In this document: in pieces, positions 1 to 4,089 of the stretch
How positions within the stretch are numbered: the stretch's first letter is position 1
Layout of the letters: every line of letters begins with the position of its first letter
Virus record (IMG/VR): IMGVR_UViG_2700989507_000008
Location: 1-4,089 of that record
Length of the DNA stretch: 4,089 bases
DNA from: a virus
Lineage: Duplodnaviria; Heunggongvirae; Uroviricota; Caudoviricetes
Direction: 5' to 3' (one strand)
The notes under the pieces: generated by a model
The model's input: only the letters and a program-made list of their open reading frames with translations
What the model was told of the DNA's origin: nothing
Database searches by the model: none
Made by a program: the position numbers and the translations under genes

Positions 1-1
1 G

Positions 2-571
2 GGTATCTCAGGGATGGTGAATAACATCACGGAGATGCTGAACGGAAATAAAGTGGAATGGCGCAGCTGGGCCTCATCAGTGCTGCAGGAAATATCAAAA
101 GTTCTTATGAATGCCGCGATTGTCAACGGAATTAAGACGGCGGCAAACGGTATGTCCGGTGCGGGAGGATTTCTCGGCAGCATTGGTGACTGGCTGGGCG
201 GAGCGGTGGCCAATGCAAAAGGCGGCGTGTATACCTCGGCAAACCTGAGTGCGTACAGCAACAGTATTGTGGATACGCCCACGTACTTTGCCTTTGCAAA
301 AGGGGCGGGGCTGATGGGGGAGGCCGGTCCTGAAGCCATTATGCCCCTGACCCGGGCGGCGGATGGCTCGCTGGGTGTGCGAGCGGTGGGCAGTATGAAC
401 GGTAGTGCGGGCCTGGTGTATTCCCCGGTCTACCATATCGCCATTCAGAATGACGGGACTAACGGACAGATAGGGCCGGAGGCGGCAGGCAGTCTTGTGC
501 AGCTGATTGACCAGCGGGTGCAGGCGGTGATGCTGTCCATGCGACGTGACGGAGGAATGCTGAGTGGCTGA
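2..571 (+). CDS. H: Tail length tape measure protein, C-terminal fragment (5' end lies outside the window)
   Basis: Reading frame is open from the window start (no in-frame stop in 2-13) to TGA at 569-571. Gly/Ala/Ser-rich C-terminal sequence. Sits immediately upstream of, and overlaps, a clear gpM homolog, which is where the tape measure gene lies in lambdoid tail clusters. The call is mainly by synteny; I cannot verify sequence identity to lambda gpH from memory. Confidence 0.7.
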   Translation, partial: GISGMVNNITEMLNGNKVEWRSWASSVLQEISKVLMNAAIVNGIKTAANGMSGAGGFLGSIGDWLGGAVANAKGGVYTSANLSAYSNSIVDTPTYFAFAKGAGLMGEAGPEAIMPLTRAADGSLGVRAVGSMNGSAGLVYSPVYHIAIQNDGTNGQIGPEAAGSLVQLIDQRVQAVMLSMRRDGGMLSG

Positions 572-905
572 GATAAAAACGCTGCATCTGGTCCCGCGTG
601 AAGGGATGCAGGTGAGTGAGAAGCCGTCGGTGGTGAGGGTGCGGTTTGGTGACGGTTATGAACAGCGCCGCCCCACAGGGCTGAATCCTCAACTGAAGAC
701 GTTTCAGGCGGTGTTCCGGGTGACGGATGAGGCGACCCGGTGCTGGCTGGAAGAGTTTTTATCGTGGCATGGTGGTTACCGTGCCTTTTTATGGCGACCG
801 CCGAAACATAACCGGATGGTCAGGGTGGTATGCCGTGAGTGGAGCGTCACGGATAACGTCCGGTACAGTGATTTCAGTTGTACGATTGAGCAGGTGGTGA
901 ACTGA
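564..905 (+). CDS. M: Minor tail protein M (tail tip assembly)
   Basis: 113-codon ORF whose translation (KPSVVRVRFGDGYEQRRPTGLNPQLKTF ... EQVVN) matches my recollection of the lambda gpM family. GTG start at 564 with GGAGG (551-555) 8 nt upstream; start overlaps the upstream stop by 8 nt; stop TGA 903-905 overlaps the L start (ATGA). Confidence 0.88.
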   Translation: MAEIKTLHLVPREGMQVSEKPSVVRVRFGDGYEQRRPTGLNPQLKTFQAVFRVTDEATRCWLEEFLSWHGGYRAFLWRPPKHNRMVRVVCREWSVTDNVRYSDFSCTIEQVVN

Positions 906-1603
906 TGCAGGATATTCACGAAGAAAGTCTGAACGAGTCGGTTAAATCAGAGCAGTCACCGCGGGTGGTACTCTGGGAAATCGACCTGACGGTACAGGGT
1001 GGTGAGCGGTATTTTTTCTGTAATGAGCTGAATGAAAAAGGGGAGCCGGTCACCTGGCAGGGGCGTAAGTATGAGGCATACCCGATTGACGGCAGCGGCT
1101 TTGAGATGAACGGCCGGGGCAGCAGTGCCCGCCCGTCGCTGACGGTGTCCAATCTGTTTGGCCTTGTCACCGGGATGGCGGAGGACCTGCAGAGTCTGGT
1201 GGGGGCCACGGTGGTCCGCCGCCGGGTGTATGCCCGTTTTCTGGATGCGGTGAATTTCGTTGCGGGCAATCCGGAGGCGGACCCGGAGCAGGAGCTGAGT
1301 GACCGCTGGGTGGTGGAGCAGATGTCGCAGCTGACAGCCATGACGGCCTCGTTTGTGCTGGCGACACCGACCGAGACGGACGGGGCGCTGTTTCCTGGTC
1401 GCATCATGCTGGCGAACACCTGTATGTGGGATTACCGGGGAGATGAATGCGGGTATAACGGTCCTGCGGTGGCGGATGAGTTCGACAACCCCACCACCGA
1501 TATCCGTAAGGACAGATGCAGCAAGTGCATGCGCGGGTGTGAGATGCGCGGCATGGTGGCTAATTTTGGCGGTTTCCTTTCCATTAATAAACTTTCGCAG
1601 TAA
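905..1603 (+). CDS. L: Minor tail protein L (tail tip assembly; C-terminal Cys cluster)
   Basis: 232-codon ORF; translation (MQDIHEESLNE...VVLWEIDLT...GGERYFFCNE...GEPVTWQGR...FGGFLSINKLSQ) is recognisably gpL-like. AGGTGG (892-897) lies 7 nt upstream of ATG 905. C-terminal cysteines at codons starting 1421, 1448, 1517, 1526, 1538. Stop TAA 1601-1603. Confidence 0.92.
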   Translation: MQDIHEESLNESVKSEQSPRVVLWEIDLTVQGGERYFFCNELNEKGEPVTWQGRKYEAYPIDGSGFEMNGRGSSARPSLTVSNLFGLVTGMAEDLQSLVGATVVRRRVYARFLDAVNFVAGNPEADPEQELSDRWVVEQMSQLTAMTASFVLATPTETDGALFPGRIMLANTCMWDYRGDECGYNGPAVADEFDNPTTDIRKDRCSKCMRGCEMRGMVANFGGFLSINKLSQ

Positions 1604-1613
1604 ATCCCGTTTT

Positions 1614-2357
1614 ATGACACAGACTGAATCAGCGATTCTGGCGCATGCCCGGCGGTGTGCGCCTGCGGAGTCGTGCGGCTTCGTGGTGAGAACGCCGGAG
1701 GGGGAGCGGTATATCCCTTGTGTGAATATCTCTGCAGAGCCGGAGGCGTATTTTCGTATTGCACCGGAAGACTGGCTGCGGGCAGAGATGCAGGGTGAGA
1801 TTGTGGCGCTGGTCCACAGCCACCCCGGTGGTCTGCCCTGGCTGAGCGAGGCCGACCGGCGGCTGCAGATAAAAAGTGCACTGTCCTGGTGGCTGGTCTG
1901 CCGGGGGGAAATTCATAAATTCCGCTGTGTGCCACATCTGACAGGACGGCGCTTTGAGCACGGGGTGACGGACTGTTACACGCTGTTCCGGGATGCATAC
2001 CATCTGGCGGGAATTGATATGCCGGATTTTGAGCGTGAGGATGACTGGTGGCGCAACGGTCAGAACCTGTACCTGGACAATATGGAGGCGACTGGTTTTT
2101 ACAGGATTTCCCTGCCTTCCGCACAGCCTGGCGATATCCTGCTGTGCTGCTTTGGCGCATCGGTGGCCAATCATGCCGCCATATACTGCGGCAACGGTGA
2201 GCTGCTTCACCATCTGCCTGAACAACTGAGTAAACGGGAGAGGTATTTCGAAAAATGGCAACGACGAACGCATTCAGCCTGGCGTCACCGCCACTGGCAC
2301 GTATCTGCCTTCACGGGGATTTACAACGATTTGGCCGCCGCCTCAGCCTGTATGTGA
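1614..2357 (+). CDS. K: Tail assembly protein K; N-terminal JAMM/MPN metalloprotease-like domain plus C-terminal NlpC/P60 cysteine peptidase-like domain
   Basis: ATG at 1614, 10 nt after the L stop; N-terminus MTQTESAILAHARR is gpK-like. JAMM motif H-x-H-x7-S-x2-D is intact (His68/His70 at 1815-1823, Ser78 at 1845-1847, Asp81 at 1854-1856). NlpC/P60-type Cys at 1974-1976 (DCYTLF) and downstream His at 2172-2174 (NHAAIY). The tracked ORF 1353..2357 extends upstream in-frame, but that part overlaps L and is not gpK-like. No obvious Shine-Dalgarno before 1614, so the start is probably translationally coupled to L. Confidence 0.88.
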   Translation: MTQTESAILAHARRCAPAESCGFVVRTPEGERYIPCVNISAEPEAYFRIAPEDWLRAEMQGEIVALVHSHPGGLPWLSEADRRLQIKSALSWWLVCRGEIHKFRCVPHLTGRRFEHGVTDCYTLFRDAYHLAGIDMPDFEREDDWWRNGQNLYLDNMEATGFYRISLPSAQPGDILLCCFGASVANHAAIYCGNGELLHHLPEQLSKRERYFEKWQRRTHSAWRHRHWHVSAFTGIYNDLAAASACM

Positions 2358-2935
2358 ACACGGCAGCGGAAGCCATCCGGGCGCTGTCGTTACAGGTGCC
2401 GGGATTCCGCCGTCAGATGAACGAAGGCTGGTACCAGATACGTATTCGCGGTGAGGACACGGCACCGGAGGCGGTGTACGCCCGTCTTCACGAACAGCTG
2501 GGTGAGGGAACGCTCATCCACATTGTGCCGCGACTGGCCGGGGCCGGAAAGGGCGGACTGCAGATTGTGCTGGGGGCGGCAGCCATCGTGGGGTCGTTCT
2601 TCACGGCCGGGGCATCAATGGCGTTATGGGGTTCAGCCCTGGCAGCCGGTGGTTTTTCTGCCACCACGATGCTGTTTTCACTGGGGGCCAGCATGATACT
2701 GGGTGGTGTGGCTCAGATGCTTGCCCCGAAGGCAAAAACACCGGATTACCGCGCAACGGATAACGGCAGACAGAACACGTATTTTTCCTCGCTGGATAAC
2801 ATGATTGCCCAGGGGAACCCGATGCCGGTGCCTTACGGTGAAATGCTGGTTGGCTCCCGGCGAATCTCCCAGGACATCAGTACCCGTGATGAAGGCGGTG
2901 ACGGGAAGGTGGTGGTTATCGGGCGGCAGGCATAA
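2255..2935 (+). CDS. I: Tail assembly protein I
   Basis: 226-codon ORF; translation (ARICLHGDLQRFGRR ... IHIVPR.AGA ... QIVLGAAAI.GSFFTAG ... NTYFSSLDNM.AQGN ... VVVIGR) is gpI-like. GGGAGAGG at 2236-2243 precedes ATG 2255. The first 103 nt overlap the 3' end of K in a different frame. Stop TAA 2933-2935. Confidence 0.9.
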   Translation: MATTNAFSLASPPLARICLHGDLQRFGRRLSLYVNTAAEAIRALSLQVPGFRRQMNEGWYQIRIRGEDTAPEAVYARLHEQLGEGTLIHIVPRLAGAGKGGLQIVLGAAAIVGSFFTAGASMALWGSALAAGGFSATTMLFSLGASMILGGVAQMLAPKAKTPDYRATDNGRQNTYFSSLDNMIAQGNPMPVPYGEMLVGSRRISQDISTRDEGGDGKVVVIGRQA

Positions 2936-2940
2936 AAGCG

Positions 2941-2978
2941 AAAAAATCCCGCAGTGCTCACGGACAGGAACTGCGGGA
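2941..2978 (-). terminator. Predicted Rho-independent terminator acting on the minus strand
   Basis: Perfect 9-bp inverted repeat TCCCGCAGT (2947-2955) / ACTGCGGGA (2970-2978) with a 14-nt loop. On the plus strand it is preceded by AAAAAA (2941-2946), so the minus-strand RNA would have the GC-rich hairpin followed directly by UUUUUU. There is no U-tract on the plus-strand side, so it is not a plus-strand terminator. Confidence 0.5.
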
Positions 2979-3037
2979 GCGTTACGAAGATTGAGTGTAA
3001 GGAATTATTCTTATGTCACGACAAAAAACATTAACGC
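2941..3037 (-). ncRNA. Hypothetical ~95-nt small RNA antisense to the tail operon, in the I-J spacer
   Basis: Inferred from the candidate promoter (TSS near 3037) and the minus-strand terminator (ends near 2941). The predicted transcript contains no ORF longer than about 6 codons and has a GU-rich 5' part (GCGUUAAUGUUUUUUGUCGUGAC). The 5' end is uncertain and there is no expression evidence. Confidence 0.25.
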
Positions 3038-3043
3038 AGAGAA

Positions 3044-3071
3044 ATTATTAGCGCCACAGTCAGTTTGTGAA
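3044..3071 (-). promoter_or_regulatory. Candidate sigma70 promoter on the minus strand (-35 TTCACA, 16-bp spacer, -10 AATAAT)
   Basis: Read on the minus strand: TTCACA (plus coords 3071-3066), 16-nt spacer, AATAAT (3049-3044); each is a 5/6 match to consensus. Lies in the AT-rich core of the I-J spacer and points towards the minus-strand terminator at 2941-2978. Predicted by eye only. Confidence 0.3.
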
Positions 3072-3108
3072 AATGTGAAGATATTCAGAATTTTTATTCA
3101 GTCATGAT

Positions 3109-3139
3109 ACAGGCATCCTCCGGGATGCCTGTTGTTTTT
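3109..3139 (+). terminator. Predicted Rho-independent terminator acting on the plus strand, immediately upstream of the J ribosome-binding site
   Basis: 10-bp stem ACAGGCATCC (3109-3118) / GGATGCCTGT (3123-3132) with tetraloop TCCG, followed by TGTTTTTG (3133-3140). The reverse complement lacks a U-tract, so it is unidirectional. Confidence 0.55.
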
Positions 3140-3173
3140 GTGCGTAACAGTTATCACAGTAAAGGGTGAGACA

Positions 3174-4089
3174 ATGGGCAAAGGTGGCGGCAAGGCGCAC
3201 ACGCCGGTAGAGGCAAAGGACAATCTTAAGTCCACGCAGATGATGAGCGTGATTGATGCCATTGGTGAAGGGCCGATTGAAGGCCCGGTGAAGGGGCTGC
3301 AGAGTATCCTGGTGAACAAAACCCCGCTGACGGACACGGACGGCAATCCTGTGATACACGGTGTGACCGCGGTCTGGCGCGCCGGGGAGCAGGAGCAGAC
3401 ACCACCGGAAGGCTTTGAGTCCTCCGGAGCGGAAACCGGACTGGGCGTGGAAGTGACGAAGGCAAAGCCGGTAACGCGCACCATTACATCCGCGAACATT
3501 GACCGCCTGCGGGTCACCTTCGGGGTGCAGTCACTGGTGCAGACCACGTCAAAGGGTGACCGAAACCCGACATCCGTCCGACTGCTGATTCAGTTACAGC
3601 GTAACGGTAACTGGGTGACGGAAAAGGATGTCACCATTAACGGCAAGACCACCTCGCAGTTTCTGGCGTCGGTGATTCTGGATAATCTGCCTGAGCGGCC
3701 CTTTAACATCCGGATGGTCCGGGAGACAGCGGACAGCACCTCGGACCAGCTGCAGAATAAGACGCTCTGGTCGTCATACACCGAAATCATCGATGTGAAA
3801 CAGTGCTACCCGAACACGGCGATTGTGGGGCTGCAGGTGGATGCGGAGCAGTTCGGCGGCCAGCAGATGACGGTGAACTACCATATCCGTGGTCGCATCA
3901 TTCAGGTACCGTCAAACTATGACCCGGAAAAACGCACGTACAGCGGTATCTGGGACGGCAGCCTGAAACCGGCATACAGCAACAACCCGGCCTGGTGCCT
4001 GTGGGACATGCTGACTCACCCGCGCTACGGCATGGGAAAACGTCTGGGGGCGGCAGACGTGGACAAATGGGCGCTGTATGCCATTGCGC
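3174..4089 (+). CDS. J: Host specificity / tip attachment protein J, N-terminal fragment (3' end lies outside the window)
   Basis: ATG at 3174 preceded by AAGGGTGAG (3161-3169). Frame is open to the window end and so is absent from the supplied ORF track. My translation begins MGKGGGKAHTPVEAKDNLKSTQMMSVIDAIGEGPIEGPV and continues ...NKTLWSSYTEIIDVKQCYPNTAIVG...AWCLWDMLTHPRYGMGKRLG, recognisably the conserved N-terminal region of lambda-family gpJ. Confidence 0.92.
   Translation, partial: MGKGGGKAHTPVEAKDNLKSTQMMSVIDAIGEGPIEGPVKGLQSILVNKTPLTDTDGNPVIHGVTAVWRAGEQEQTPPEGFESSGAETGLGVEVTKAKPVTRTITSANIDRLRVTFGVQSLVQTTSKGDRNPTSVRLLIQLQRNGNWVTEKDVTINGKTTSQFLASVILDNLPERPFNIRMVRETADSTSDQLQNKTLWSSYTEIIDVKQCYPNTAIVGLQVDAEQFGGQQMTVNYHIRGRIIQVPSNYDPEKRTYSGIWDGSLKPAYSNNPAWCLWDMLTHPRYGMGKRLGAADVDKWALYAIA

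Follow-up and report, generated by a model that had tools for sequence, protein, structure and literature searches.

The window analysed here is a stretch of 4,089 nucleotides (nt) of viral DNA (Caudoviricetes; IMG/VR record IMGVR_UViG_2700989507_000008, positions 1 to 4,089), and the subject of this study is the 238-bp spacer that separates its tail genes I and J. On the minus strand of this spacer we identified a member of a family of small RNAs (sRNAs) known from two Escherichia coli pathotypes, as PasB in enteropathogenic E. coli (EPEC) and as EcOnc22, EcOnc23 and EcOnc24 in enterohaemorrhagic E. coli (EHEC). The spacer is very probably a moron-like insertion in the late tail operon of an Stx-type lambdoid prophage, carrying one gene for an Hfq-binding sRNA that runs antisense to I and J. 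The window element is a divergent, unannotated allele of a family that had already been found experimentally. What is added here is the link between PasB and EcOnc22-24, the diversity of the alleles, a CRP-like site, and a conserved hairpin on the J side of the spacer.

The minus-strand sRNA unit and its relatives

We built a covariance model, R1, of 95 positions from 10 alleles (PasB, EcOnc22 and 8 others), excluding the window allele and its near-identical copies. When run against the window, the model matched positions 3037-2941 of the minus strand from end to end (model positions 1-95 of 95; 66.7 bits, E 2e-13), and the next match reached 12.7 bits. Since a model made without the window allele matched this interval over its full length, the window holds a member of the PasB/EcOnc22-24 family.

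The experimental record of the family comes from two sources. PasB was described in EPEC strain E2348/69 as an 83-nt, Northern-validated RNA of prophage PP6 (NC_011601, 1466343-1466261, minus strand) that showed log2 changes of -6.8 and -2.4 in an hfq deletion (Pearl Mizrahi et al. 2021, PMC8550237). Mapping on NC_011601 placed it between I, which ends at 1466255, and J, which starts at 1466496, antisense to the tail genes. EcOnc22, EcOnc23 and EcOnc24 were found in EHEC O157:H7 Sakai by Hfq crosslinking, ran at ~85 nt on Northern blots, were destabilised without Hfq, and were assigned to prophages Sp15 (Stx1), Sp14 and Sp11, respectively (Tree et al. 2014, PMC4104026). The target of the Northern probe shared by the three (23 nt, exact) maps to the Sp15 I-J spacer, on the antisense strand and directly 5' of the terminator, and the spacers of Sp11, Sp14 and Sp15 are identical 240-bp sequences. 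An earlier version of the genome underlies the published peak coordinates; once these were corrected by ~+128, a shift checked with the EcOnc04 probe, the Hfq crosslink peak covered the sRNA body. The original prediction for this spacer, made from the letters of the window, had held that any product was probably RNA or a regulatory site, and the homologous spacers of E2348/69 and Sakai do yield Hfq-dependent sRNAs on Northern blots. Sakai J itself looks disrupted in two of these prophages, since in Sp15 it is annotated as two host-specificity coding sequences of 1176 and 2346 nt (ECs_2943/2944) and in Sp14 the coding sequence at the J start is only 1176 nt long (ECs_2720); the sRNA spacers of Sp11, Sp14 and Sp15 are intact.

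In the window, scans, inverted repeats and folds revealed that the minus strand of the spacer is a complete promoter-to-terminator unit. Its features, in the order of transcription after the two transcript forms, are as follows.

2941..3037, minus strand: predicted primary transcript of the PasB/EcOnc22-24-family sRNA, 97 nt, starting at G3037, 7 nt past the -10, and ending in the U-tract; matched end to end by the model
2941..3022, minus strand: shorter form, 82 nt, whose 5' end aligns with the published 5' end of the 83-nt PasB; second start or processed product
3071..3092, no strand assigned: CRP-like site AAATGTGAAGATATTCAGAATT, centre 3081.5; the best-conserved block of the spacer, with 2 mismatches to the 22-bp consensus
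3066..3071, minus strand: -35 hexamer TTCACA, followed by a 16-nt spacer; from the scan, unconserved in Stx2_95-type alleles
3044..3049, minus strand: -10 hexamer AATAAT; from the scan, with TATAAT, GATAAT, CATAAT or TATCAT in other alleles
3023..3028, minus strand: U-run GUUUUUU, close to the 5' end in the 97-nt form and present in nearly all alleles; possible processing or Hfq site
3001..3014, minus strand: A-rich AUAAGAAUAAUUCC, A-R-N-like and ending in a conserved UCC; candidate Hfq distal-face site, from alignments and the A-R-N rule
2986..2992, minus strand: AAUCUUC block, unpaired in the fold of the short form; candidate shared seed, with AUCUU invariant in 21/21 spacers and its flanks nearly so
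2979..2985, minus strand: allele-specific stretch GUAACGC (CGUAACGC when C2986 of the adjoining block is included), immediately 5' of the terminator in the alignments; PasB has CAUUUGUC
2947..2978, minus strand: intrinsic terminator hairpin with a 9-bp stem, UCCCGCAGU/ACUGCGGGA (2978-2970 with 2955-2947), and a 14-nt loop; from scan, inverted repeats and fold
2941..2946, minus strand: terminal U6 run of the terminator, whose end is 6 nt away from the I stop; likely Hfq proximal-face site, on grounds general to Hfq-binding sRNAs and from a survey of PasB (Zhu, Shabalina & Storz 2026 preprint)

By sequence, the promoter TTCACA-16 nt-AATAAT (3071..3044, minus strand) is sigma-70-like and agrees with the consensus at 10/12 positions. 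Scans of the spacer, for which shuffled sequence supplied the expectation, returned 2 promoter-like sites against 0.5 expected and 4 terminator-like sites against 0.6 expected. The core of the terminator, a 7-bp stem, pairs in 10/10 model alleles and includes one compensatory change from G-C to A-U. The A-R-N motif is the published rule for the distal face of Hfq (Tree et al. 2014, PMC4104026). Two minor candidates were dropped along the way. A sigma-54 promoter at TGGCGC was rejected by eye for want of the -12 GC element. In the fold of the 97-nt form (z-score -3.55), the 5' GCGUUA (3032-3037) can pair with UAACGC (2979-2984) on the minus strand; this long-range helix was rejected as a family feature, being limited to the window allele type and absent from other alleles.

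Compared with PasB, the window sRNA occupies the same I-J locus on the same antisense strand, with its 3' end beside the I stop (~6 nt in PasB as here), and it shows full-length homology, its own promoter, the promoter block with the CRP-like site, the U-run, the A-rich plus UCC block, an AAUCUUC-like block, the terminator stem and the U-tail. The two differ in that they are 71% identical over the transcript, that the terminator loop has 11 nt in PasB and 14 nt in the window, and that the stretch 5' of the terminator, the proposed PasB seed, reads CAUUUGUC in PasB and CGUAACGC in the window. EcOnc22-24 share locus and strand with the window element, which comes from the same kind of Stx-type phage, and are 69% identical to its allele. 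Judged from these sequences, the window copy is a family member by descent, probably with different targets.

Experiments had already uncovered homologues in 2014 and 2021, so the element is not new. In the PasB survey, the variants described vary at a few nucleotides (Zhu, Shabalina & Storz 2026 preprint); the window allele, being only 71% identical, falls outside that description. In the literature that we searched the link between PasB and EcOnc22-24 is absent: the preprint does not contain the EcOnc names, and the 2021 table (PMC8550237) gives EHEC homologues for PasA and PasD and none for PasB. Nor did we find in these papers the several alleles at 67-80% identity, the CRP-like site, or the plus-strand hairpin before J.

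The spacer in its tail module and its alleles

The window covers the tail-tip part of a lambdoid late operon, running from the 3' end of H through M, L, K and I to the 5' end of J, all of which were confirmed by Pfam. Four features frame the junction.

2255..2935, plus strand: gene I, tail assembly, with stop codon TAA at 2933-2935; open reading frame (ORF) list and Pfam Lambda_tail_I, E 1.5e-14
2936..3173, no strand assigned: I-J spacer, 238 bp, G+C 0.41 overall
3109..3140, plus strand: intrinsic-terminator-like hairpin with a 10-bp stem and UCCG loop, then UGUUUUUG, just upstream of the ribosome-binding site of J; from scans and inverted repeats
3174..4089, plus strand: 5' part of gene J, host specificity (tip attachment), with ATG at 3174; ORF list and Pfam FNIII-A_GpJ

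The original prediction had singled out this spacer for its length amid tight junctions, for a core of about one-third G+C between GC-rich flanks, and for its lack of a credible coding ORF, and each of these points was upheld. I ends at 2935 and J starts at 3174, and at the remaining junctions H and M overlap by 8 nt, M and L overlap by 1 nt, L and K lie 10 nt apart, and K and I overlap by 103 nt. (The K/I overlap, at 2255-2357, is in different frames and ordinary for this module, as with K and I of lambda.) The G+C content of the core (2981-3108) is 0.32 (0.31-0.32) against ~0.54-0.68 in the neighbouring genes. The ORFs of the spacer have 26, 21 and, with a TTG start, 38 codons; in-frame conservation among 21 related spacers was 0, and stops are present in all six frames of the window spacer. 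A search of the entire window against Rfam 15, on both strands and with E up to 1, matched no family, including AgvB, AsxR, Esr41, STnc100 and IsrG.

For the comparison across phages we aligned 21 related I-J spacers of 235-343 bp, with the junctions of lambda and 2G7b set beside them. The prediction had expected a short spacer in lambda and proposed a patchily distributed, moron-type insertion, and this picture was supported: the junction is 60 and 59 bp long in lambda and 2G7b, where it amounts to a terminator-like hairpin of its own plus the J leader, and 235-343 bp long in Stx-type and EHEC/EPEC-type lambdoid phages. With only 59-60 bp at this junction in lambda-type phages, the element can fairly be called an "sRNA moron". 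The spacer has the further marks of a moron: it is additional DNA between genes that relatives have side by side, it brings a promoter and a terminator of its own, and its base composition is odd; expression in the lysogen is known from the homologues. Protein-coding morons such as lom and bor, in the concept of Juhala et al. 2000 as cited in later work, likewise consist of extra DNA between otherwise adjacent genes, with their own signals, atypical composition and expression from the prophage; they differ from the window element, whose cargo is a non-coding RNA on the opposite strand.

Two other sRNA systems of such phages were compared. AgvB and AsxR (Rfam RF02702, RF02703), which are anti-sRNAs of EHEC prophages, are also short Hfq-bound sRNAs with their own promoter and terminator, in moron positions, with a conserved 3' scaffold and variable pairing regions. 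We rejected identity with them, since AgvB and AsxR are encoded downstream of PR' and stx and outside the tail operon. The Rfam scan (E up to 1) showed no sequence similarity to the window, and as anti-sRNAs the two would act as sponges for a core sRNA. 24B_1 of Stx phage phi24B, from the lom-vb_24B_43 region, resembles the window sRNA in being a small RNA of the tail-proximal late region; it differs in being a ~20-nt cleavage product of a longer transcript (PMC4426718), at another locus and of unrelated sequence.

The window as a whole is 97-98% identical to O103, O26 and O157 E. coli prophages, and several Stx2c- and Stx1a-converting phages have a spacer 100% identical to its own. Phage JLK-2012 carries a copy identical to the window allele, which is 94% identical to an O2:H1 allele and 67-80% identical to the rest. 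All share one order along the sRNA strand, namely the J-side hairpin, a near-invariant block with AAATGTGA-N6-TCAGAATT, the -10, GCGUUA with the U-run, the A-rich-UCC stretch, AAUCUUC, and the terminator with its U-tail. Variation falls in the promoter spacer, past the U-run, immediately ahead of the terminator, and in the terminator loop. The alleles are mosaics whose exchange points fall in the conserved block; in WGPS8, a J-proximal half of the window type and an sRNA half of the Stx2_95 type are joined at that block (3071-3100).

Some length variation lies outside the sRNA unit. In the 342-343-bp spacers of PPompW_EH2201, HM670 and Ecol_867, ~150 bp of unrelated DNA replaces the J-proximal hairpin, and the sRNA unit is intact. 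This DNA contains a hairpin, CCCCGGTATC-AGCA-GATACCGGGG, with T-runs on both strands, and may act as a terminator in both directions or form another small gene. The 7-nt unit TGTCTGA, just upstream of the J start, behaves as a variable tandem repeat, with 4 copies in Stx2a_F349 and 180-PT54 and 2 in most Stx2-type spacers (compare spacer record L004).

The plus-strand hairpin of the window (3109-3132, then TGTTTTTG) folds with a z-score of -4.4, and the alleles include a compensatory change from T-A to C-G together with the U.G intermediate. A terminator-like hairpin precedes J in all junctions examined, in three unrelated versions: the window type, the type of the 342-bp PPompW spacer, and that of lambda, which in imm434 (record L016, 351-410) reads AAACCGCC-TGCG-GGCGGTTT followed by TGTCATTT. 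To our knowledge, no role has been described for a terminator within the late tail operon of lambda. The window hairpin is a separate feature of the junction, through which Q-modified RNA polymerase is expected to read. A plus-strand promoter for a convergent sRNA ending at 3109-3140 was considered, and the scan found none. The claim that the spacer carries transcription signals on both strands thus stands in part: the minus strand has promoter and terminator, and the plus strand has the terminator-like hairpin only. Conservation across the alleles did hold, for the promoter block as well as for the stem of the terminator and the hairpin of the plus strand, with a compensatory change in each of the two hairpins.

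Regulation, pairing and competing explanations

The CRP-like site was scored against the 22-bp CRP consensus AAATGTGA-N6-TCACATTT, and 0/200 shuffles gave a match. Its half-sites are invariant in 20/21 spacers, and the central 6 bp vary. The level of PasB is higher in overnight culture in lysogeny broth (LB) than in Dulbecco's modification of Eagle's medium (DMEM), and Spf, a CRP-repressed sRNA, shows the reverse. The words "CRP" and "promoter" occur nowhere in the PasB survey preprint (Zhu et al.). The conserved site is predicted, as a plausible lead that falls somewhat short of probable, to put the sRNA under catabolite control.

In a lysogen whose late operon is silent, the sRNA would be made from its own promoter, and trimming at the U-run may shorten its 97-nt primary transcript to ~82 nt. 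It would bind Hfq through the U-tail and the A-rich stretch, and would pair in trans with mRNAs or other RNAs through the single-stranded AAUCUUC and CGUAACGC between the A-rich region and the terminator. The seed proposed for PasB lies directly 5' of the terminator (Zhu, Shabalina & Storz 2026 preprint). Because this stretch differs in the window allele (CGUAACGC in place of CAUUUGUC), the target set probably differs from that of PasB.

The partners known for the homologue come from Hfq-bound chimeras, recovered by ligating and sequencing interacting RNAs (RIL-seq), and, for PasB, include ler, bfpB, bfpI, perB, ftsZ, galE, glk, gshA, hflX and prophage RNAs. Two strong partners share GACGGAUG, which is able to pair with CAUUUGUC of PasB. 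The top partner (774 chimeras; NC_011601 743482-743611, plus strand) and a second one (54 chimeras; 1290834-1290972, plus strand) share a stretch of sequence, and both RNAs derive from the neighbourhood of pasA and pasC (prophages PP2 and PP5), with the first situated between an esterase and a holin gene. These partners hint at cross-talk between prophages, possibly with a link to the lysis cassette. In the carrier phage LC727877, a search for targets of the window sRNA returned no complementary word of at least 12 nt, and 10-mers occurred at chance level; the holin-upstream RNA, the top RIL-seq partner of PasB, has no homologue in that phage.

Several observations weigh against the reading of the spacer as a regulated, trans-acting sRNA gene. 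Expression is known for the homologues only, and the assayed EcOnc22 (Sp15) and PasB are 69% and 71% identical to the window allele. There are two candidate 5' ends: the consensus promoter leads to a 97-nt transcript (~3037), and the published PasB has 83 nt (~3022, just past the U-run). The Sakai Hfq crosslink peak begins in the U-run, which supports the 5' end at ~3022, and the shorter form may arise by processing or from a second, weaker promoter (TAATGT at 3033-3028, of which the pattern TAnnnT is conserved). The 09A19CPO allele lacks half of the CRP-like site. For CRP, the canonical centres are about -41.5 in class II and about -61.5, -72.5 and beyond in class I; here the centre falls at -44.5 if counted from the predicted start (3037) and at ~-59.5 if counted from the PasB-type 5' end. 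Since neither is a canonical distance, we hold CRP control to rather less than an even chance. Duplex predictions for PasB or the window allele with three RIL-seq partners were no better than those for shuffled sRNAs, which makes the seed assignments weak. Finally, there is no published phenotype or validated target for any family member.

Other explanations of the same sequence were weighed against these points. If the block at 3071-3100 were a recombination linker at the mosaic boundary, or the site of another regulator, then the join of the WGPS8 mosaic at this block and the non-canonical distance from either start would follow directly; fixed half-sites around a variable 6-bp centre fit a dimeric DNA-binding protein rather than a linker, the site is near the CRP consensus, and the expression of PasB in two media goes in the direction expected for CRP. 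We regard this explanation of the block as quite possible, if not the one we favour. The sRNA could also act mainly in cis, being a perfect complement of the I-J intercistronic stretch in the late tail mRNA. Pairing during lytic growth would then lead to cleavage by RNase III or RNase E, or transcription would collide, so as to set the ratio of I to J or to let resident prophages hinder the tails of related phages. The gene is antisense within the late operon in 21/21 spacers, divergence of alleles costs nothing when complementarity is kept automatically, and EHEC genomes hold up to 11 such loci. Against this, PasB and EcOnc22-24 were seen in lysogens without induction, a state in which little late mRNA is present, PasB has numerous partners in trans on Hfq, and the conserved AAUCUUC and AAYUCC blocks would be unneeded in a purely cis-acting RNA. 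A mainly cis-acting sRNA therefore seems unlikely to us; it is possible that a cis role coexists with trans action.

Two further readings would remove the sRNA from the centre. The spacer might be mainly a cis element of the late operon, a terminator or stabilising hairpin with a translation leader for J, and the minus-strand RNA a by-product. The presence of a J-side hairpin in all variants, its three unrelated versions and its compensatory change all speak for such an element; lambda, however, manages in 60 bp, the extra ~180 bp are exactly the minus-strand promoter-to-terminator unit, and the homologous RNA is abundant and Hfq-bound in two pathotypes. We consider this very unlikely. The spacer might instead encode a small protein, or be what is left of a decayed protein gene or type I toxin-antitoxin pair. 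In most alleles (for example L006, 237-335; the window equivalent is 2983-2994, plus strand) the plus-strand sequence is ATGAAGAT(T/C)AA, the opening of an MKI(N/S) ORF that has 22-41 codons in many alleles, and one phage record annotates it as a gene for a hypothetical protein. Since ATGAAGAT(T/C)AA exactly complements UUAAUCUUCAU, the conserved block of the sRNA, either strand could be the one that this conservation serves. In the window, however, the ATG is an ACG, the other recurrent frame has a stop, and lengths, frames and C-termini differ among alleles. With no conserved frame and stops in all six, a small protein or decayed gene was rejected for the window; with no conserved frame and no start codon in the window, there is no conserved small hydrophobic ORF, and a type I toxin-antitoxin system was rejected too. 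We give these protein-based readings next to no weight, and retain that of an sRNA gene carried by a moron-like insertion.

Distribution and significance

Among 5426 complete E. coli genomes, any match to the spacer was found in 1890, at 6268 places and with up to 11 per genome, and 40/40 among the matches listed have no annotated feature under them in RefSeq. The window-type sRNA occurs in 653 genomes (1013 places) and the PasB type in 956 genomes (999 places). A scan of 185,579 species-representative genomes for the exact promoter motif returned 42 loci, of which 39 were chance matches; the real ones, which also had the model match, were from E. albertii and from two contaminant contigs. The two contigs, labelled "Streptomyces flavalbus" (tig00003715, 3408 bp) and "Parendozoicomonas haliclonae" (460 bp), are 81-94% identical to K-I-spacer-J, match the model at 95-96 bits, and are almost certainly E. 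coli prophage contamination. A restriction to Escherichia and Shigella has been reported, and the finding of E. albertii alone agrees.

In EHEC and EPEC, sRNAs from prophages rewire the expression of core and virulence genes. Within that setting, PasB and EcOnc22-24, which were named independently, turn out to be one family with a fixed home between I and J, and this family greatly exceeds, in size and variety, what one would gather from the published survey of PasB. The gain is one of annotation and of hypotheses, chiefly the CRP lead and the allele-specific targets, rather than of a new principle, and its interest is modest. The alleles might together form a swappable sRNA cassette, in which a fixed scaffold (CRP-like site, promoter, U-run, Hfq sites, terminator) carries allele-specific pairing regions; an EHEC genome with up to 11 copies would then hold a catabolite-controlled set of sRNAs with different targets, each also perfectly antisense to the tail mRNA of phages with the same allele. 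We offer this as a speculation that is more likely wrong than right by a wide measure. If it is true, such cassettes would let lambdoid phages, whether resident together or newly arriving, interfere or cross-talk with one another in an allele-specific way.

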